This document shows positions 24,842-59,548 of a stretch of DNA of 64,000 nucleotides, one piece after another. Origin of the DNA: a virus (Duplodnaviria; Heunggongvirae; Uroviricota; Caudoviricetes). Location: the IMG/VR virus record IMGVR_UViG_3300045988_003641, positions 25,067 through 89,066 of that record; one strand, given 5' to 3'. Within the stretch, counting starts at the first letter, position 1. Each line of letters begins with the position of its first letter. The position numbers and the translations under genes are program-made. The notes under the pieces are model-generated. The model saw only the letters and a list, made by a program, of their open reading frames with translations. It was not told where the DNA came from and made no database searches.

Positions 24842-25098
24842 TTTGTAAATCCTTTCTTAATGAACCAGTTGATAACACTCTTCACAACTTTACTACGATG
24901 GTAGATAAAATGTGGAGAGGGTTGGTATGAACCATAAGCCCAGAAAGCGATAATTTCATTACACACTGTGCATCGGGTACTTTCTTCAGCAATATGACCG
25001 TTAACTATTTCACTTACCTCACCTTGTAAGTCTGTACACCCACAATGTGGACAACGGATAGGTGTTCCATCAGACTCATAGCAGTGTTCAATTTTCAT
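24838..25098 (-). CDS. zinc-ribbon protein
   Basis: 86 aa; CPHCGC...CTVC cysteine pairs. Confidence 0.3.
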   Translation of the reverse strand: MKIEHCYESDGTPIRCPHCGCTDLQGEVSEIVNGHIAEESTRCTVCNEIIAFWAYGSYQPSPHFIYHRSKVVKSVINWFIKKGFTK

Positions 25099-45927: not shown

Positions 45928-46997
45928 TTAACCAGCACCCAATCTTTTTAGGTGGTGAGAGAAAAACTTTTGACTCACTTAATAAACACTACCCAAAAAT
46001 CTTTGAACTTTATAAACAACAAAAAGCACAAGACTGGTCAGAAGATGAGTTCACTTTTGAACAATCACGTCTTGATTTTGAGAGTGTCCCAGCATCAATG
46101 TCAGGTGTAATGCTTGAGATTCTTAAGTGGCAGTGGGAAGCAGATACTCAAGTTGCTAAGAGCTTGGCATTTGCCTTTGCACCATTTATCTCTGATGACA
46201 TCTATGCAACTGCAATTATGAAGCAGTCTGAGATTGAAAACCTACATGCCCTTACTTACTCAGAGATTGTAAGGCAATGTATTAAAAACCCTGAAACAAT
46301 CTTAGATGAGATTAACCAGAATGTTGCTGTGCAAGACCGATTAAAAACTGTGAATCGTGTTCTTGAAGAATTACTGGATGAAGGTATAAACTATCGTCTG
46401 AGTTATGTGCGTGATTCACTTCTGGACAAAGACCCTTTACACTTCCATAAAGTGATTCTGAAAGGGCTGTTTGCAGTGACTGCACTTGAAGGTATATCTT
46501 TTATGGCATCCTTTGCATGTACTTTTGCACTTGATGCTCAAGATAAATTTCAGGGTATTGCTCAAGCTGTGCAGAAGATTATGCTTGATGAAATCCTTCA
46601 CACTAAAATTGATATTGAAGTTTTAAAAGAAACTTTAAGAGATGATGAGTGGCAGAAAGCTTTTCAACAAATTCTTCCAGAGATTAAAGTAATCTTAGAT
46701 GAAGTAGTTGAAAGTGAAGAGAAATGGTCGTATTATATCTTCTCCGAAGGACGTGCTGTAGTTGGCTTAAATACAAAGCTTCTTCATGAGTGGGTTTACT
46801 ATAATGCTGCCCCACTGTATGATATGTTTGGCATTCCCAGAGATTTTGTAGCTCCTAAAGAACCACCTTTGAAGTACATGATTAAGAAGATGGAAATTGA
46901 TAAAGAGCAGAATGCTAATCAGGAGCAACAGAACGGTGCGTACCTATTGAATACTGTTGTAGATGATTTGAATAGTGGATTTTTAGAGGTTCCTTAA
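45924..46997 (+). CDS. nrdB: ribonucleotide reductase class I small subunit
   Basis: ~357 aa from ATG preceded by AAGGAGA; ferritin-like helical protein adjacent to nrdA. Confidence 0.8.
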   Translation: MINQHPIFLGGERKTFDSLNKHYPKIFELYKQQKAQDWSEDEFTFEQSRLDFESVPASMSGVMLEILKWQWEADTQVAKSLAFAFAPFISDDIYATAIMKQSEIENLHALTYSEIVRQCIKNPETILDEINQNVAVQDRLKTVNRVLEELLDEGINYRLSYVRDSLLDKDPLHFHKVILKGLFAVTALEGISFMASFACTFALDAQDKFQGIAQAVQKIMLDEILHTKIDIEVLKETLRDDEWQKAFQQILPEIKVILDEVVESEEKWSYYIFSEGRAVVGLNTKLLHEWVYYNAAPLYDMFGIPRDFVAPKEPPLKYMIKKMEIDKEQNANQEQQNGAYLLNTVVDDLNSGFLEVP

Positions 46998-47239
46998 TGA
47001 CTTATGTAATTTACTCCAAAACTGGATGCCCTCAGTGCGAGACTGCAAAGAATTTTGCAAAAGCTCGTGGTATTGACCATGTTGTGAGAATGTTAGGGCA
47101 GGACTATGAACTATCAGACCTGATTGATATTGCACAGATGCCAGTTCGTCAGATGCCATTCATCATGAAAACTGATGGGCAAAACCTAAAACCTGTTGGT
47201 ACGCTACAGAATTTTATGGCAGAGGTGAATAATGCTTAA
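46997..47239 (+). CDS. glutaredoxin/NrdH-like redoxin
   Basis: 80 aa; CPQC active-site motif; coupled to nrdB. Confidence 0.55.
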   Translation: MTYVIYSKTGCPQCETAKNFAKARGIDHVVRMLGQDYELSDLIDIAQMPVRQMPFIMKTDGQNLKPVGTLQNFMAEVNNA

Positions 47240-47438
47240 ACGCATTTGGGAAGGTTTGTTTGTTGATGCACCAGCTATTGTGATTGGTATGCTTATCGTT
47301 AACCTATTTACTGACTTTGAACAAGGTTCATTGTTTGGAGCCATGTTACTATGGGTTATCTTCGAAATATTAGAGATACAGTTAGGTATCACTGAAAAAC
47401 TAAGAGAACTCTTTGCGAAGTTTTCTAAAAAGATTTAA
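47232..47438 (+). CDS. small membrane protein
   Basis: 68 aa, hydrophobic. Confidence 0.25.
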   Translation: MLKRIWEGLFVDAPAIVIGMLIVNLFTDFEQGSLFGAMLLWVIFEILEIQLGITEKLRELFAKFSKKI

Positions 47439-49640: not shown

Positions 49641-49680
49641 AGGTGATGTGGGTCTTGATAGGCTTACATCACCTTTTTTA
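49641..49680 (+). terminator. putative terminator after nrdD
   Basis: AGGTGATGT...ACATCACCT stem followed by TTTTT. Confidence 0.5.
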
Positions 49681-49785
49681 TTGGATGTTAGATATGGCAG
49701 AAAGTATTATTGGGTTGTTCATAGGTTCTGTCTCACTAGGGTTCTTTTTAGGACTCTCTTATTGTGAATTGAAAGGTAAGTTAAA

Positions 49786-49986
49786 ATGTTTAAGATATCA
49801 AAAGCGTTGATATACATACTCCATATTCTAGTCTTCTTCTTTGGGGTTAGTGTTATGGTATGGGGTTTTTCAGACCCACAATGGAGTTTCTCATATCATG
49901 GTCAGATGGATTTATGGTCATGCTTCAAACCATTTTTAGGGTTAGTCATAGCATTCAGTGCATTACCAACTAAGGTGAAATTATGA
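49786..49986 (+). CDS. small membrane protein
   Basis: 66 aa, two hydrophobic segments. Confidence 0.25.
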   Translation: MFKISKALIYILHILVFFFGVSVMVWGFSDPQWSFSYHGQMDLWSCFKPFLGLVIAFSALPTKVKL

Positions 49987-52424: not shown

Positions 52425-52695
52425 AGAGAAGTGGGAAATTTTACCATTAGTCAGTGAAGGTGGTAATGGTTGTGAAATGTACATGATACGTGGTCATGTT
52501 CCAGAACCAATTGCACTTGAGATGGTAAACAACTTTACAGATGGTTCTTACAAAGACTTAGGAGAGCCAACTATAAAGCATCAATGGGTAAAACCTGTAC
52601 CAGACAGCACAGGTAACTGTAGTGTACTTTACCACGTTGTAGACCCTGTAAAATGCAAATCTGCAATGGCAGTAACAAACGTAACCTTTGATTGA
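52417..52695 (+). CDS. hypothetical protein
   Basis: 92 aa. Confidence 0.3.
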   Translation: MAKEKWEILPLVSEGGNGCEMYMIRGHVPEPIALEMVNNFTDGSYKDLGEPTIKHQWVKPVPDSTGNCSVLYHVVDPVKCKSAMAVTNVTFD

Positions 52696-53588
52696 GAGAC
52701 AAAACTATGAAAACATCTATCCGTGTTACAGTTCATTCACCAACTAAAGGGACTCACGAAGAAGAGTTTAACATCGTCCAATTTCCTTCTGGTGAGATTG
52801 GTGGACATTTTTCACCAGAGTTTGTTGATTTTACTGCTTATGCTGCATCATCCATCAACAACGTGATTATGATTATAAAGGGTTATGACAAAGACACATT
52901 ATTTGCTGTGGCACTTGCTAAAGAGGTAATTGATGATTTAGTACCTCATAAGTTTGCTATGAAGACTGCTATCTTTTACTATTTGCCAAATGCACGTTAC
53001 GACCGTCACATGTTTAAAGGTGATGCAGCAGCTTTGAAAGTGTTTGCACAACAGGTTAATGCAATGGGTTTTGATGCAGTCTGTGCAGTTGACCCTCATA
53101 GTTACGTTCCAGATAACCTTTTCAATTGCTTCCAGAGTATTCCTCAAAAGGAGATTGCAGTCCATTACGCAAATGACCCTCTGATTGATTACTTAGTAGC
53201 CCCAGATGCAGGTGCTTCTAAGAAGATTGCAGAGACTGCTAAAGAGGTGGATAAACCATATATCACAATGTCTAAGGTGCGAAATCTTAAGACTGGAGAA
53301 ATCACTGGTATGCGAATCCTTGACGATGTTGATTTGACCGATAAAACCGTCATGATTCTTGATGATATCTGTGATGGTGGTCGAACCTTCGTAGAGGCAG
53401 CTAAACACCTACGTGAAGCAGGTGCAAAACGTGTAGAGCTTTATGTAACACATGGTATCTTCTCTAAAGATGTTGAAAACCTTCTTGACAATGGTATCGA
53501 CCATATTTACACTACAAACTCTTTAGGCGAAGCTAAAGACCGTGGCTTAACACATTACAGTCAAGTTACTGTAGCAAACCTTGATTGA
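52692..53588 (+). CDS. ribose-phosphate pyrophosphokinase family protein (Prs-like; possibly ADP-ribose pyrophosphokinase)
   Basis: 298 aa; type I PRTase PRPP-binding loop VMILDDICDGGRT; directly upstream of NAMPT-like gene. Confidence 0.6.
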   Translation: MRDKTMKTSIRVTVHSPTKGTHEEEFNIVQFPSGEIGGHFSPEFVDFTAYAASSINNVIMIIKGYDKDTLFAVALAKEVIDDLVPHKFAMKTAIFYYLPNARYDRHMFKGDAAALKVFAQQVNAMGFDAVCAVDPHSYVPDNLFNCFQSIPQKEIAVHYANDPLIDYLVAPDAGASKKIAETAKEVDKPYITMSKVRNLKTGEITGMRILDDVDLTDKTVMILDDICDGGRTFVEAAKHLREAGAKRVELYVTHGIFSKDVENLLDNGIDHIYTTNSLGEAKDRGLTHYSQVTVANLD

Positions 53589-53635: not shown

Positions 53636-55417
53636 ATGACTAAATCACTTTATGCAGTACCAGCAGGTTTAAACGCGGATGCTTACAAGTCTGGCCATGT
53701 TTACCAGTACCCTAGTGCAACAGAATACTTGATGTTCAACCTGACACCACGTAGTGACAAATGGTTTAACAGCCCTTTAGCAATTGACGGTGTAGTGGCT
53801 TTTGGTATTCAACGTTTTGTTAAAGATTACTTGATAGACCACTGGAACGCCACTTTCTTTGAACGTGATAAAAAAGAAGCAATTGACGAAATCTTAGAAG
53901 TCATGAATGGTGTTCTGGGTAAAGATGCTATCGGTCGAGAGCATTGGGAAGCACTTCACGACTTAGGTTATCTACCAGTTGAAGTATACGCGGTAGAAGA
54001 AGGTACAGTTGTCCCTATGCGTGTCCCAATGATTGTCTTCCAGAACACTGTTTCAGGTTTCCATTGGGTAGCAGGTTATCTGGAAGATGCTTTCTCTGCT
54101 GAGATTTGGAAGGCTTGCACTATTGCAACTATTGCATTGCATTACAAACGCATCTGTAAGAAGTGGGCTGACCTTACTTGTGACAACGACTTACATCTGC
54201 CCTATCAGTGCCATGACTTTGCTATGCGTGGTATGTCCGGCTTTACTGATGACGCATTTAACGCTGTAGGTCACTTAACCAGCTTTAAAGGAACCGATAG
54301 CTTCCCTGCTGTATACACGGCTAAACGCATCTATGGACAGTCTTACCCAATCTCTGATATTGGTAGTTCTGTACCAGCCACTGAACACTCTGTAATGTGT
54401 GCAAACATTGCTTGGGAAGGTGGTAATGAATTGATTGAAGAAGAAAGACGCTTTAAAGGTGAGTTACAAACCTTCCGTCGTTTCTTAACAGAAACTTACC
54501 CAACTGGTATTGCAAGTATTGTTTCAGATACTTATAACTTCTGGAGAACTGTGTCAGAAATCTTACCAGCACTCCGTAAAGAAATTATGGAACGTGATGG
54601 TAAACTGGTAATTCGCCCTGACTCTGGAGACCCTGTACATATTGTCACAGGTTATAAAGCAATCCACTTAGAGTGTGCTAAAAAGGCTTATTACGAGCAC
54701 CTAAGCAAGCTTGAAGCCAGCGACACAATGTTGAATGCTGTTCTGAACATGAAGCTTGAAAACATCAACTATGGTATTGCTGGATGGCTACTGTCAGAAG
54801 GCTACGAAATGGTTGTTGACAGAGAAGACTTTGAAGTAGCCGATACAGTGTTGCTGAAAGATGCTTACATCAACGGCTCTGCAAACGTTGTAACACGTCC
54901 TGTAGCGGAGATTGATGGAGCTATTAAGACACTGTACAACATCTTTGGGGGAACTATTAACTCTAAAGGGTTTAAGGTACTGGATGAGCACATTGGCCTT
55001 ATCTATGGCGACTCTATCACGCTGGAACGTGCAAACGAAATCCTGAAGCGTCTGTATGAAATGGGTTTTGCAAGCTCTAACGTAGTGTTTGGTGTAGGCT
55101 CTTACACTTACCAGTACATGACTCGTGACACCTTTGCATTTGCTGTTAAAGCAACTCTTGCAAGCATTGGTGGTAAAGAGATTATGCTTGCAAAAGACCC
55201 TAAAACAGATAGTGGTGTTAAGAAGTCTGCTTTTGGTGGTGTAGTACCTATGTGGAATGGTGATAAGTTGAAAGCTGTAGATGGCTATGGATTCCAGAGC
55301 TTTGCAGATGTACTTGAACATCCAGCTTGTGCTCTACGTTTAGTCTTTAGTGACTCTGAGCAGTATGGTTACACATCTCTTGGTGATATTCGAAATAATA
55401 TTGACAAGCAGCTTTAA
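53636..55417 (+). CDS. nicotinamide phosphoribosyltransferase family protein (NAMPT-like)
   Basis: 593 aa; GTDSFPA and PATEHS motifs resemble NAMPT signatures. Confidence 0.65.
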   Translation: MTKSLYAVPAGLNADAYKSGHVYQYPSATEYLMFNLTPRSDKWFNSPLAIDGVVAFGIQRFVKDYLIDHWNATFFERDKKEAIDEILEVMNGVLGKDAIGREHWEALHDLGYLPVEVYAVEEGTVVPMRVPMIVFQNTVSGFHWVAGYLEDAFSAEIWKACTIATIALHYKRICKKWADLTCDNDLHLPYQCHDFAMRGMSGFTDDAFNAVGHLTSFKGTDSFPAVYTAKRIYGQSYPISDIGSSVPATEHSVMCANIAWEGGNELIEEERRFKGELQTFRRFLTETYPTGIASIVSDTYNFWRTVSEILPALRKEIMERDGKLVIRPDSGDPVHIVTGYKAIHLECAKKAYYEHLSKLEASDTMLNAVLNMKLENINYGIAGWLLSEGYEMVVDREDFEVADTVLLKDAYINGSANVVTRPVAEIDGAIKTLYNIFGGTINSKGFKVLDEHIGLIYGDSITLERANEILKRLYEMGFASSNVVFGVGSYTYQYMTRDTFAFAVKATLASIGGKEIMLAKDPKTDSGVKKSAFGGVVPMWNGDKLKAVDGYGFQSFADVLEHPACALRLVFSDSEQYGYTSLGDIRNNIDKQL

Positions 55418-55432
55418 AAGTATATGATAAAA

Positions 55433-55453
55433 GGCTCCCGTAGGAGCCTTTTT
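55433..55453 (+). terminator. rho-independent terminator
   Basis: GGCTCC-CGTA-GGAGCC then TTTTT. Confidence 0.6.
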
Positions 55454-55470
55454 AATTTCTGGAGAAGACT

Positions 55471-55806
55471 ATGAAAATCAAAGAAATGAACATCAACATT
55501 GTCTTAGAAGAACGTTGGGAGAACATCAAGAAGCATGAAGATGGTCATAAGTTCCTTAACAAAATTTTAGTAGCAGCTAAAGAAGAACTGGCTGGCAAGG
55601 TTGCAGCAGCAATCACAATAAAGGTTTGTGTAAAAGGTCTTCCACAACATCACCAATTTGCACTTGACGAGTTTAAAGAAAGCTTCTACAATCCAAACAA
55701 ACAGATGCTTGAAAGTAACTTTGCAGTATCTACAAGTATCGTTCATGACAGAAGCTTTATCCTTTACAAGAATATGAGAGGTGAGTCATGCAAGCATATT
55801 GGATAG
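55471..55806 (+). CDS. hypothetical protein
   Basis: 111 aa. Confidence 0.3.
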   Translation: MKIKEMNINIVLEERWENIKKHEDGHKFLNKILVAAKEELAGKVAAAITIKVCVKGLPQHHQFALDEFKESFYNPNKQMLESNFAVSTSIVHDRSFILYKNMRGESCKHIG

Positions 55807-55964
55807 AAATTTTACTGTCACTTGGTAGTGTAGCAGTATTTGTTTACCTCCTTTGTAAGTACTTTGCAGAGCACAAAAAATGTGACTACTGTAATGGAGA
55901 GGGGTACATAAGGGCAGGATGTTGTCCTATGTGTGGTGGTTCTGGTAAAATGTTTAATAAGTAA
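55788..55964 (+). CDS. small membrane-anchored zinc-finger protein (58 aa), not in ORF track
   Basis: ATG preceded by GAGAGGTGA; N-terminal hydrophobic helix then two CxxCxGxG motifs (CDYCNGEG, CPMCGGSG). Confidence 0.35.
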   Translation: MQAYWIEILLSLGSVAVFVYLLCKYFAEHKKCDYCNGEGYIRAGCCPMCGGSGKMFNK

Positions 55965-55992
55965 TTTAACAGTAAACTGAGAGGAAAGTATT

Positions 55993-58359
55993 ATGCGCAT
56001 GGTAAATGACCACGCAGAAGTGATTAAGAGTTCAACTTCTTTAGAGACGTCTCAAGCACAGATTACAATGACACCTGAGATGTTCAGCCTTTTGAGTTCT
56101 GGTGTATATACCTTTAAAGAAAGGGCAGTGATTCGTGAACTGTCATGTAACGCAGTAGATGCTCAGAAAGAAGCTGGAAAAGAGAACATCCCATTCCATG
56201 TGCATTTACCTACTCGTTTTGAGCCTTACTTCGAAGTTCGTGATTTTGGAACTGGATTGACTCATGATAAAGTTATGAGTTTGTACCTAAACTATGGAGC
56301 TTCTACGAAGAATGACTCTAATGACTACATTGGTGCAATGGGTATCGGCTCAAAGTCACCATTTGCAATTGCTCAGTCATTCACAGTATCTAGTTATGTT
56401 GACGGTGTTGTTAATAAGTACTCTGTTTATCTTGAGAATGGTATCCCTCAAGTAACTAAGCTGACAACTAACCAAACAAAAGAACCTAATGGTTTAGCTG
56501 TACGTGTGGCAGTTGCTGACCACCGTATCTCAAAGTTCTTTGAAGAAGCTGGGAATGTGTACTCATACTTCACTGTAAAACCAGAAAGTAATATTGAGTA
56601 CGACGATGTATTAGCAGATATGAACGTAATTGCCCGTGAAGAAGGTGTTTATGATGCCATGATTCATAAGCACAGCTGGCGTTCTAGTGATAACAGGACA
56701 GAGTTTAATGTGGTGATGGGTAACATTGCCTATCCAGTGAACATGGAAGCGTTACTTGGTGATGATTTCTTCAAAGTCTTGCCAGAGTTTTTCCGTAGGA
56801 GCGTAGACCTTGTAAACATCTACATGCCTATTGGTTCAGTTGCTATTGCAGCTTCTCGTGAAGCATTGCAGATGAATGACACGACAAAAAATGTTATCAT
56901 TGAGGCTACTAAAAAGATAACTGAAGCAATTACAAAGGATGTTATCAAGAAAGTTAATAGCCAACCTACACTCATGGATGCTGCACAGGCTTATGCTGAG
57001 TTACGTTTGAACTCACGAGAGATGTTTAATGCTGTGTGTCCAAAGCTAGAGTGGGGTGGCGTTAAGCTTGATTCTCTGGAAGAAGAATTGCTAAACATTC
57101 GTCGTGGAATTATCTACGCAGAAGACGGCTCAGTCATTTATGAACGTGATGGTAAAGGCAATATTAAGGTTGATAGGAACGGGAACAATATACCTAAAGT
57201 AGATTATCTTTATGACCCAGTTGCTTATGTCAAGTTCAACTCTTTAGAGAGTAAGATTCGTGCAACATCGCTTTCCTACACTCAAGAGGCAAGTATGTTC
57301 AATATCTTTGGTGCAATGCGTAAAAGCCAAATTGAACAGTTTTTGTTCGTGATTAATGACCGTCGCAATAAAAATGGTACTGAGAAGACTGTAGGCCGCA
57401 ATCAGATTCTGCGTGGTGCATGTCGAGACTACGCCAGTGAGTCAAGTCTGTTTCACAGATACAATGGTATTGTGTTTGTATTCTCGACTGAAAAAGAGTT
57501 AGACGACCTAATCAATCTACACAAACTTGATAAAAGCTTGTTAAAGATTGTGAAAATGTCTGATAAGGAGCACCATTACCAGCGCAAAGAAGCTGTAAGG
57601 GGTGTTGTAAAACTCTGGAAAGCTGTTCCAGCAGAAGGTGTAGCTTCCTATAAAGAGGTTTCAGAGGACTTAGACACAATTGAAGAACCTCAGCTTTACA
57701 TTAAGGCAATTGGTGACACAGTTGATGGTGAATGTTTTTGCTCATCCCCAGAAGATGTAGCTAAGTCAGTTGCTAATGTTATTGGAAAGACAGTCTATGT
57801 TTTCCGAAAAGCAAATTGGAAAAAGATACCAGAAGACTGGATTGAAGTAGATGAGAAGCTCTTGAACGACAGCTTAACTGATGTTCATTGGATTAATCAT
57901 AACAGGTATACGACACGCATCTACATGAATGGTGTTCTTGACCTTACAAGTAGCTGGATTATTGCCAGAAACTTTACGTTCAATAACAGGAAGATTTCTC
58001 GTGGCTATTGCTATTCACGGGATACAAACAAAACTATCTTCCTAGAAGGTAATGAAGAGGCTGTAGAGGCAATGTTTGGTAAAATCCAGTATGTTGCTGC
58101 ACCATTTGCATACACTTACACTATTAGTGTGTTGAAAACTTTGAAAGATTGTCTTGACAACGATACAAAGCTTTACAAGAAAATTAAGAAAGCTGGTGAC
58201 CGTATGGTTATTAAGGTGACAAACTACCTTTCAAAAAGAAAACAAGAAAACTTCTTGCTTTCTCATTTAGATTGGAATAAAGTGTCACCCATCGAAGTGA
58301 GTAAGTTCTTAGGTTTTGATGTGAAGTGTGTTCCAGAAGGAACTACAGTTTACGATTAA
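55993..58359 (+). CDS. rIIA: rIIA-like protein
   Basis: 788 aa; N-terminal GHKL ATPase-like motifs (RELSCNAVDA, RDFGTGL, GAMGIGSKSPF) closely resemble T4 RIIA N-terminus. Confidence 0.8.
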   Translation: MRMVNDHAEVIKSSTSLETSQAQITMTPEMFSLLSSGVYTFKERAVIRELSCNAVDAQKEAGKENIPFHVHLPTRFEPYFEVRDFGTGLTHDKVMSLYLNYGASTKNDSNDYIGAMGIGSKSPFAIAQSFTVSSYVDGVVNKYSVYLENGIPQVTKLTTNQTKEPNGLAVRVAVADHRISKFFEEAGNVYSYFTVKPESNIEYDDVLADMNVIAREEGVYDAMIHKHSWRSSDNRTEFNVVMGNIAYPVNMEALLGDDFFKVLPEFFRRSVDLVNIYMPIGSVAIAASREALQMNDTTKNVIIEATKKITEAITKDVIKKVNSQPTLMDAAQAYAELRLNSREMFNAVCPKLEWGGVKLDSLEEELLNIRRGIIYAEDGSVIYERDGKGNIKVDRNGNNIPKVDYLYDPVAYVKFNSLESKIRATSLSYTQEASMFNIFGAMRKSQIEQFLFVINDRRNKNGTEKTVGRNQILRGACRDYASESSLFHRYNGIVFVFSTEKELDDLINLHKLDKSLLKIVKMSDKEHHYQRKEAVRGVVKLWKAVPAEGVASYKEVSEDLDTIEEPQLYIKAIGDTVDGECFCSSPEDVAKSVANVIGKTVYVFRKANWKKIPEDWIEVDEKLLNDSLTDVHWINHNRYTTRIYMNGVLDLTSSWIIARNFTFNNRKISRGYCYSRDTNKTIFLEGNEEAVEAMFGKIQYVAAPFAYTYTISVLKTLKDCLDNDTKLYKKIKKAGDRMVIKVTNYLSKRKQENFLLSHLDWNKVSPIEVSKFLGFDVKCVPEGTTVYD

Positions 58360-58438: not shown

Positions 58439-59548
58439 ATGACTACTAAAACTAAAGCACAGATTGACGCAGAAATTTACAAACTGGTTAAAGAAGGTAA
58501 GCTGACTAAAACAGCTATTGCACAGAAATTTAATACTTCAACCCGTTCAGTCGGTCGTGCTGTAGAGCGTCATGAAGCAACATTAAAAGGGAATAAGAAG
58601 GTAACTTCTACACCAGCTACGAAGACTTTGAAGCAAGTTGCTAAGACCTTTAAAAAGAAAGCTGACAAACCAGTTGAAAAGGTTGTTAAAGATTCTGTAC
58701 AGAAAGCTCCAGTAAATAAACTGCACGAAGCTATGCAGAAAGATGACAAGATTGAGTACATGATTACTGGCGACTCTGTAATTATGACTTACGGTTCAGA
58801 ATCTGAAATTGTTGAGTCTACTCATCCGAACTATCAAGAGATTGTAGTTCATGTTGTGAAAGGTGAGTTCAAGAAAGCCTTTGAACTGATGAACATTCGT
58901 AAGTCTATCGAAAACTTCACGCAGGGAGCTATCACAATCAAAGGTGATAAGCTATTCTACGGTGCTGTTGAGATGCGTTCTACTCTGGTTGACCGTATCC
59001 TTCACATGATGAAGACTGGTGATAAAGGTTTTGAACGACTTGTAATGTTCTTCGAAAAACTGATGGAAAACCCATCTAAAGATTCTGTAGAACAACTTTG
59101 GGGATTCATATCTCACCTTGATGTTGAAATTGATGAAGAAGGCTACATCATTGGTTGGAAGAAAGTCTCTACTCGTGAAGGCAAGCTGGTTGACTCCCGC
59201 ACCTGCAAAGTACCTAATGATTTGGGTAACATTGTAGAAATGCCACGTTGGATGGTTGATAATAACCGTAACGTGACTTGCTCTCAAGGTCTTCACGTTG
59301 GTGCTTGGGATTATGTTCGTTACTTCTCAGGTGATACAATTCTGAAGGTTCGTGTCCATCCACGAGACGTTGTATCCGTACCAACTGATTACAACGATAT
59401 GAAGATGCGCTCGTCTCGTTATGAAGTTGCAGCAATCGTTGATAATCAACGTAAAGTACTGAAAGCATGGGATGGCAAGACTGAAGCTTTGCATGTCATC
59501 GTTGGCACTGCTGGTGAACTTATCTCTGAGCGTAAACGTGAAATCTAA
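58439..59548 (+). CDS. rIIB: rIIB-like protein
   Basis: 369 aa; C-terminal KVRVHPRDVVSVPTDYNDMKMRSSRYEV strongly resembles T4 RIIB; adjacent to rIIA. Confidence 0.8.
   Translation: MTTKTKAQIDAEIYKLVKEGKLTKTAIAQKFNTSTRSVGRAVERHEATLKGNKKVTSTPATKTLKQVAKTFKKKADKPVEKVVKDSVQKAPVNKLHEAMQKDDKIEYMITGDSVIMTYGSESEIVESTHPNYQEIVVHVVKGEFKKAFELMNIRKSIENFTQGAITIKGDKLFYGAVEMRSTLVDRILHMMKTGDKGFERLVMFFEKLMENPSKDSVEQLWGFISHLDVEIDEEGYIIGWKKVSTREGKLVDSRTCKVPNDLGNIVEMPRWMVDNNRNVTCSQGLHVGAWDYVRYFSGDTILKVRVHPRDVVSVPTDYNDMKMRSSRYEVAAIVDNQRKVLKAWDGKTEALHVIVGTAGELISERKREI

Follow-up and report, generated by a model that had tools for sequence, protein, structure and literature searches.

In the cysteine-rich domain of DnaJ/Hsp40 proteins, four CxxCxGxG motifs establish two interleaved zinc centres. 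A simpler arrangement is found in anti-TRAP, a Bacillus protein of 53 amino acids (aa) which has two such motifs and one zinc per subunit, the metal being needed both for assembly and for its function as a protein inhibitor (PMC2896485). The plant protein FIP, in turn, has its N-terminus in the lumen and its finger in the stroma and binds the membrane protein FtsH5, and its homologues have been reported in mosses and higher plants only (PMC5915565). The two-motif module, also referred to as a partial DnaJ, is likewise known from other phage proteins (PMC9038755, PMC5313236). Here we have analyzed a 58-aa open reading frame (ORF) of a tailed phage, located at 55788..55964 (+ strand) of a 64,000-nucleotide (nt) stretch (positions 25,067 to 89,066 of IMG/VR record IMGVR_UViG_3300045988_003641, hereafter the window), which combines an N-terminal hydrophobic helix with two CxxCxGxG motifs and is placed in front of rIIA. 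Because it has no J domain or other catalytic part, the protein is most likely a membrane-tethered protein-binding module; we estimate at roughly 55% the probability that it is a Zn(Cys)4 knuckle facing the cytoplasm that is probably expressed early and interacts with a partner protein at the inner membrane.

The ORF, whose product is MQAYWIEILLSLGSVAVFVYLLCKYFAEHKKCDYCNGEGYIRAGCCPMCGGSGKMFNK, is a genuine gene. The ATG at 55788 is the sole possible start, since an in-frame TGA is found 3 nt upstream, and it is preceded by GAGAGGTGA (55776-55784), with a GAGG core that ends 6 nt before the ATG. In the orthologues of Moogle, mistaenkt, GEC-3S and Yersinia phage P778, GGAG or GAGG also occurs 6–9 nt upstream of the start, and in Salmonella phage Meda a ribosome-binding site is annotated for the corresponding copy. 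In the six frames of the window, CxxCxGxG is matched at two places only, CDYCNGEG (aa 32-39) and CPMCGGSG (aa 46-53) of this ORF; shuffled windows (n=30) contain 0.2 matches on average, so that two motifs 14 codons apart within one short ORF are not due to chance. The preliminary description of this DNA, which worked with a 60-aa ORF cut-off, had pointed to an ORF at this position with a good ribosome-binding site, an N-terminal hydrophobic helix and both motifs, all of which we recovered. It had also proposed conservation of the reading frame and of the cysteines as a check, and both are conserved, as detailed below.

Selection on the ORF was evaluated from the ratio of nonsynonymous to synonymous polymorphism (pN/pS) among 17 unique Felixounavirus alleles. 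In the frame of the ORF the ratio is 0.097, the same as in the neighbouring 111-aa gene, and that of the first 900 nt of rIIA is 0.039; the variable sites are distributed over the three codon positions as 8/5/27. Four of the five other frames have ratios of 1.0–3.2, and the remaining low value (0.12) corresponds to the antisense frame sharing third codon positions, in which no ORF is listed. At the protein level, an alignment of 13 homologues, extending down to 26% identity, shows that M1, C32, C35, G37, G39, C46, C49, G51 and G53 are invariant and that E7, S11 and K54 are nearly so, with E7 and S11 kept in at least 90% of the sequences; the two extra cysteines, C23 and C45, are not conserved. 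In a Mooglevirus-like contig (L051, 2259-2438) Gly39 of the first motif is replaced by Asp (CDECEGSD), the sole break of a motif residue that was seen.

A length of 58 aa is below the usual gene-calling cut-offs and several deposited genomes leave the gene unannotated (in humlepung and heid one hypothetical protein lies under the match), which might suggest a chance or non-coding ORF, or that the real gene is an antisense 60-aa ORF (55818..56000, − strand). However, this alternative is already refuted by the existing data: pN/pS is 0.097 in the frame of the ORF as opposed to 2.2 in that of the antisense ORF, the motif residues are invariant at 26–60% identity, both motifs fall in a single ORF where 0.2 matches are expected per 64 kb, the ribosome-binding site is conserved and the protein matches PHROG 3931 with E=1.5e-33, while an Rfam scan of 55300-56100 produced nothing near any gathering score. 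The antisense ORF is rejected on its ratio and is an artefact of the codon usage of the sense gene. A 46-aa hydrophobic ORF in the +1 frame within the gene was also rejected, as it starts with TTG and pN/pS is at least 1.0 in both shifted frames; its presence explains the 63-aa 'proteins' of some frameshifted genomes considered further on.

The gene had been described as unannotated, which proved wrong, as annotations exist in the relatives Meda (Meda_002, 'possible membrane protein'), JH2 (gp023, 'membrane protein') and Felix O1. The protein is 93–100% identical to proteins annotated in many Felixounavirus genomes, and residues 1-58 align to positions 1-59 of the 59 in the PHROG 3931 profile, a family of unknown function; VOG3798 is assigned in the note of one record, and the record of phiEa21-4 gp117 mentions similarity to RB49p046. 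Within this PHROG 3931 / Felix01p243 / RB49p046 family the window protein is a full-length member without differences. No precomputed Pfam domain is present on any of the homologues and the zinc-finger character is missing from the public annotations. Thus, whereas the gene and its family were already in the databases without a function, what is new, judging from the sequence comparisons, is the single putative zinc knuckle in the anti-TRAP register on a membrane anchor, as well as the constancy of the gene in front of rIIA across the Ounavirinae.

The similarity of the Cys4 module to known zinc-binding domains was assessed with a family profile built from 13 homologues. This profile matches the Cys-rich domain of E. 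coli DnaJ (1EXK, E=1.2e-10), DNAJA3 (2CTT, 1e-7) and anti-TRAP (2BX9, 7e-3). Each half of the 1EXK domain can be aligned to the phage module, the register being that of DnaJ motifs 3-4, and the alignment to anti-TRAP is ungapped, with residues 31-53 on chain residues 11-33 and C32/35/46/49 on 12/15/26/29. Nine of 11 family members have a spacing of 14 residues from motif to motif, and the remaining two have 15. Among 1.8 billion representatives the profile retrieves 2092 proteins at E<=1e-3, mostly proteins with multiple CxxCxGxG repeats and bona fide DnaJs, including DnaJ proteins of about 340–350 aa at E around 1e-9 to 1e-8. At the level of the profile alignments the similarity to the DnaJ Cys-rich domain is real, but it extends to half a domain only. 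The designation as a DnaJ-type zinc finger put forward in the preliminary description therefore applies to the motifs and is in line with the 1EXK match, but it does not make the protein a DnaJ, because there are two motifs only instead of four, no J domain and no G/F region, and the curated DnaJ cut-offs are not reached; the 58-aa sequence has no HPD tripeptide and no J-domain match was found in Pfam or NCBIfam. Considering the invariance of the four cysteines together with the profile similarity, C32, C35, C46 and C49 are the predicted zinc ligands.

The other part of the protein is a hydrophobic segment, which we evaluated through the Kyte-Doolittle mean over a 19-residue window (KD19). Residues 5-23 form the sole strongly hydrophobic stretch encoded in this group of four adjacent genes, with a KD19 of 2.11 as compared to no more than 1.29 in rIIA, rIIB and the 111-aa ORF, and in all 11 family members examined the value is between 1.87 and 3.05. 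In agreement, the AlphaFold2 model obtained with the 13-sequence alignment has a helix spanning residues 3-27 and, after it, short β-hairpins, with a mean predicted local distance difference test (pLDDT) score of 75, and a Foldseek comparison against viral models returned the Sf18, RB49 and phiEa21-4 homologues along with assorted 'DnaJ-like' phage zinc-finger proteins. None of the 11 family members has a lysine or arginine N-terminal of the helix, all basic residues being C-terminal to it, and from the positive-inside rule an N-out/C-in topology is thus predicted. The Cys4 module would then be exposed to the cytoplasm, a reducing environment in which zinc-thiolate sites are stable. The conserved E7 and S11 are separated by one helical turn, towards the outer end of the helix, and this pair suggests that the helix may be more than a passive anchor. 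A lipoprotein or a cleavable signal peptide was considered and rejected, since there is no basic n-region, 'LLC' is not a lipobox (Leu at −1) and C23 varies between homologues (Ala in Suspvirus).

Taken together, these elements suggest a bitopic inner-membrane protein in which an N-terminus of four residues would be periplasmic, a single transmembrane (TM) helix would carry the conserved Glu/Ser pair, and the approximately 30 C-terminal residues would be cytoplasmic and folded around one Zn(Cys)4 centre made of two CxxCxGxG knuckles. The fold would be anti-TRAP-like, the module being equal to half of a DnaJ Cys-rich domain. Such a protein could bring a partner to the inner membrane on its cytoplasmic side, retain it there or block it, and the conserved polar face of its helix could contact a membrane protein or drive self-association.

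The genomic setting bears on when the protein is made and on what its partner might be. The 1-kb stretch around the gene is matched by 224 phage records at 80–99% identity, nearly all of them Felixounavirus, and by this sequence similarity the window is assigned to that genus of Felix O1-like myoviruses of Escherichia and Salmonella. All local genes are on the + strand, in the order nrdA, nrdB, glutaredoxin, nrdD, nrdG, prsA, nadV, 111-aa ORF, 58-aa ORF, rIIA and rIIB. The features closest to the gene are:

52692-53588, + strand: prsA
53636-55417, + strand: nadV
55401..55452, + strand: sigma70-like promoter (11/12 positions) and terminator-like hairpin (10-bp stem, then a T-run)
55471..55806, + strand: 111-aa gene of unknown function (ORF list; match to PHROG 4262)
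55776..55784, + strand: Shine-Dalgarno sequence GAGAGGTGA, inside the 3' end of the 111-aa ORF
55788..55964, + strand: 58-aa gene, N-terminal TM helix and putative two-motif Cys4 zinc knuckle (orthologue of Felix01p243, PHROG 3931)
55800..55856, + strand: predicted TM helix, codons 5-23, WIEILLSLGSVAVFVYLLC (KD19 2.11; AlphaFold2 helix)
55881..55946, + strand: putative Zn(Cys)4 site, codons 32-53, CDYCNGEG-x6-CPMCGGSG, with C32, C35, C46 and C49 (residue invariance and profile alignment)
55993..58359, + strand: rIIA, 788 aa (PHROG 612, E=1.4e-188)
58439..59548, + strand: rIIB, 369 aa (PHROG 609, E=7e-89)

The promoter, TTGACA-16-TATGAT at 55401-55428, is near the sigma70 consensus and overlaps the nadV stop codon. 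Immediately downstream are the GC-rich hairpin and T-run (55429-55452), beyond which lie a Shine-Dalgarno sequence and the ATG of the 111-aa ORF. The same layout of promoter and hairpin is present in seven other loci (Meda, JH2, Moogle, mistaenkt, Yersinia phage P778 and two metagenomic lineages), where the stem sequences differ between lineages yet stay complementary, and Meda annotates a terminator at the 3' end of nadV. A transcript from this promoter would start inside the 5' arm of the stem, so that it might not be terminated, in contrast to transcription reading through from nadV, which would be stopped. The 111-aa ORF and the 58-aa gene overlap by 19 nt, as they also do in Moogle, mistaenkt and the contig locus L060, which suggests translational coupling of the two. 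The transcription unit is probably composed of the promoter, a set of variable small genes, the 58-aa gene, rIIA and rIIB, and the conserved promoter and hairpin upstream, the start overlapping the upstream ORF and the block of nucleotide-metabolism genes make it probable that the 58-aa gene is expressed early.

The slot between nadV and rIIA (55418-55992 in the window; also inspected in L003, L006, L027, L028, L060 and L062) is a variable cassette in which the zinc-knuckle gene is constant. Most phages have the 111-aa ORF, some Felixounaviruses have an extra 114-aa ORF, Mooglevirus-like phages add an ORF of 71–75 aa (DUF7279 in L060) and P778 has nothing extra. In phiEa21-4, gp115 and gp116 take the place of the variable genes, and gp117 (MDVHTGLNILLVLVIVGGLLAAKYRVDSCCKHCDGTGVKDGCVCPFCQGTGEDD) is the last gene of the record, with rIIA being gp1; in L027 a 164-aa ORF is found between the small gene and rIIA. 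The fold search with the 111-aa protein was uninformative. On a 95.7-kb contig, a 116-aa protein (P0169) has the N-terminus of prsA fused to the C-terminal half of the 111-aa protein, which implies that a deletion has removed nadV in that phage. In IMGVR_UViG_2706796256_000001 (L054, 2501-3412), a genome which is otherwise a 98%-identical Felixounavirus, the rIIA frame ends after 303 aa, through either a frameshift or a sequencing error.

Three further small hydrophobic ORFs are found in the nrd block of the window, at 47232-47438 (68 aa), 49643-49810 (55 aa) and 49786-49986 (66 aa). The last 8 nt of the glutaredoxin gene (46997-47239) also belong to the first of these ORFs, which has no Cys motifs; its placement after glutaredoxin is that of the zinc-knuckle gene after nrdH in T4-like phages.

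This T4-like placement is relevant to a redox function, in which the CxxC pairs would cycle between dithiol and disulfide on substrates close to the membrane and might work together with the phage glutaredoxin or NrdH. Cycling of this kind has been reported for the zinc finger of DnaJ and for CYO1-type proteins of plants. Indeed, in three T4-like lineages the start of the gene lies within nrdH, with an 11-nt overlap at the 3' end of the latter, which suggests coupled expression, the long gene block of the window also includes a glutaredoxin gene and nrd genes, and an oxidoreductase activity is described for the DnaJ zinc-finger domain (PMC8262869). Against this, the Ounavirinae gene is 8.5 kb away from the glutaredoxin gene, the ORF that does overlap glutaredoxin there has no Cys motifs, and a structural zinc knuckle is better in line with the invariant glycines and the 14-residue register than a free CxxC active site. 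We thus regard a thiol-disulfide function as improbable.

Returning to the membrane-tethered partner-binding module, a number of observations weigh against it. The curated cut-offs were all missed in the Pfam, NCBIfam and PADLOC scans of both small proteins: as a single sequence, the 58-aa protein scores 18.3 bits against the 32.7 required for Pfam PF00684 DnaJ_CXXCXGXG (E=0.0029, profile positions 34-65 of 65), 11.7 against 32 for Anti-TRAP PF15777 and 14.4 against 65 for NCBIfam RtpA NF058604, with further sub-threshold matches to DUF5351 and to NCBIfam DnaJ, and the only PADLOC match (PDC-M01B, E=0.018, 12 bits) covers the Cys motif and gives no membership in a defence system. The assignment of the zinc ligands is itself a deduction from invariance and similarity, and the structure searches gave nothing beyond the single helix. 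In some orthologues (Moogle, mistaenkt) the residues just after the helix are net acidic, which makes the positive-inside argument weaker. Frameshifted copies exist in phiWec174, phiWec177 and NJ12 and in three read-assembled Logan contigs (proteins P0003-P0007), four of them joining the TM helix to the +1-frame tail (63 aa) and that of NJ12 being truncated at 41 aa; an A6 run (55875-55880) and a G4 run (55901-55904) are the likely slip sites, and if these are not sequencing errors the gene may be dispensable in laboratory culture. The association with rIIA also has exceptions, which weaken the idea of an RII partner: the four most distant of the scanned rIIA loci (34–43% identity) have no such ORF upstream, and the T4-like homologues (Krischvirus GEC-3S and the P0081 and P0090 loci) are those that overlap the glutaredoxin-like nrdH, being located, in GEC-3S and at the P0081 locus, upstream of a DEAD-helicase-like gene and of a gene annotated in GEC-3S as late sigma factor (gene 55). 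Finally, the searched literature (locus tag, Felixounavirus transcriptomes, phage CXXCXGXG, rIIA/rIIB) holds no functional study of the family, the sole mention found being a table row. In a published table the copy of UAB_Phi87 is given as the counterpart of the Felix O1 protein 'Hypothetical membrane protein Felix01p243 (NP_945023.1)' (PMC4837284).

The extent of the adjacency to rIIA was analyzed in 32 rIIA loci from IMG/VR, 17 of which were scanned for upstream ORFs. The small gene is present in 13/13 scanned loci with an rIIA identity of at least 63%. Its position between nadV and rIIA is common to Felixounavirus, Mooglevirus, Suspvirus, Kolesnikvirus (phiEa21-4) and Yersinia phage P778, as seen in Meda, JH2, Moogle, mistaenkt, P778, phiEa21-4 and 20+ IMG/VR loci. 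Since the placement in T4-like phages differs and the distant rIIA loci lack the gene, this adjacency is a feature at the level of the subfamily and not a property of the protein family.

The RII proteins of T4 are membrane-associated, and RIIA/RIIB is one candidate partner of the 58-aa protein, which we propose only tentatively. A more specific possibility is that the protein is an accessory subunit of RIIA/RIIB, its TM helix anchoring the soluble-looking RII proteins through the zinc knuckle, in which case its role would be that of rII, which is to protect against abortive infection of the Rex type and to maintain membrane integrity. A gap of 28 nt separates the stop codon of the gene from the rIIA start and the two share the promoter-proximal unit, the gene stays in the slot between nadV and rIIA in four Ounavirinae genera and in P778 while the other small genes vary, it persists where rIIA has diverged to 37–40% identity, and the RIIA and RIIB of the window have no hydrophobic segment of their own (maximal KD19 of 1.29 and 0.69, respectively). 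However, the T4-like homologues are tens of kb from the place of rIIA in such genomes, no T4 homologue is among the matches listed (tblastn, E<=10), the four divergent rIIA loci mentioned above lack the ORF and in L027 the 164-aa ORF separates the two genes; moreover, a gene order that is kept within one subfamily can be plain inheritance. On balance, an RII subunit is unlikely. By analogy with anti-TRAP and FIP, the knuckle might also dock or regulate either RIIA/RIIB, as an rII membrane anchor in the Ounavirinae, or a host membrane machine such as FtsH, a proposal that we consider rather doubtful.

In the preliminary description, the position next to rIIA/rIIB had been taken as a possible link to membrane-associated exclusion or to lysis timing. 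The adjacency itself is kept across the Ounavirinae, but the functional link has this adjacency as its only basis, and for lysis timing it is unsupported. A holin, an antiholin or an Imm/Sp-like superinfection-exclusion protein would agree with a small single-pass membrane protein of a lytic phage whose adjoining genes have historically been named 'lysis inhibitors', and in Felix O1-type phages no holin has been identified beside the endolysin gene (PMC4837284). The evidence in the window is nevertheless of a different kind, as the gene follows a sigma70-like promoter in a nucleotide-metabolism block and not in a lysis cassette, its bulk is a Cys4 module expected in the reducing cytoplasm with about four residues in the periplasm, and it matches no lysis PHROG or Pfam family, the sole PHROG with a named function being a weak Q-like antiterminator match (E=0.01). 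The rII genes, in addition, are not mechanistic lysis genes, and in the loci examined the T4-like homologues are unlinked to rII, t, rI and rIII. A direct role in lysis timing or exclusion is thus very improbable.

The gene is carried by hundreds of Felix O1-like phages of therapeutic and biocontrol use, where it is labelled only as 'hypothetical (membrane) protein', and its annotation can be improved to a membrane-anchored protein with a putative single zinc knuckle of the DnaJ/anti-TRAP type. It is the sole constant small gene before rIIA/rIIB across the four named Ounavirinae genera and related phages, and for this reason its 58 aa and four cysteines may be a cheap entry point to the membrane role of RII or to a new host target. 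Should the partner prove to be RII or a host membrane machine such as FtsH, very small phage effectors of a new class would be defined and rII function would become accessible to biochemistry; for now, the family counts among the many conserved small phage membrane proteins.

A comparison with the described systems sets out what is shared and what is particular in this protein. The DnaJ Cys-rich domain (PF00684) is the best sequence-profile match of the module, but in DnaJ it is accompanied by the J domain, the G/F region and, at the C-terminus, domains for substrate binding, whereas the phage protein consists of two motifs and a TM helix. Anti-TRAP (RtpA; 2BX9, 3LCZ) is closer in dimensions, as in both cases a protein of about 55 aa stands on its own and has two, and only two, CXXCXGXG motifs, separated by 14 residues. 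Anti-TRAP is, however, a soluble protein whose C-terminal helix mediates the assembly of trimers and dodecamers, while the phage sequence ends five residues after the second motif in a short basic tail and has its hydrophobic helix at the N-terminus; there is also no TRAP or trp context in the phage. Since the C-terminal helix is absent and the anti-TRAP cut-offs are missed, the protein is not an anti-TRAP.

Larger phage proteins, such as HMO-2011-type DNA polymerases, Q-like antiterminators (lambda Q-type proteins being the weak PHROG match referred to above) and portal-like proteins, likewise contain a CxxCxGxG-x(6-10)-CxxCxGxG module. In these the module is embedded in the interior of a large protein, either a soluble enzyme or a structural protein, whereas here it makes up the whole soluble part of a tiny membrane protein. 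Several IMG/VR contigs (L017, L018, L019-L021, L023 and L024) also have the module within large unrelated proteins, which by eye are portal-like (~530–610 aa), prohead-protease-like or acidic (~380 aa), and this suggests a mobile zinc-knuckle module in phage proteomes.

The closest design is that of FIP, which belongs, as do CYO1, HCF222 and OR, to the membrane-anchored, J-less DnaJ-like zinc-finger proteins of plants. Once its transit peptide is removed, FIP likewise consists of one hydrophobic anchor and, behind it, a C4 finger that contains two CXXCXGXG motifs, and its lumen/stroma orientation corresponds to the N-out/C-in topology predicted here. These proteins are eukaryotic, located in plastids and larger than the phage protein, and the likeness to FIP is one of design by analogy and not of family membership. 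Anti-TRAP, as a pure protein-binding inhibitor, and the plant J-less zinc-finger proteins, with FIP as the nearest in design, may nevertheless be seen as precedents for a small membrane-tethered zinc knuckle that acts by binding a partner.

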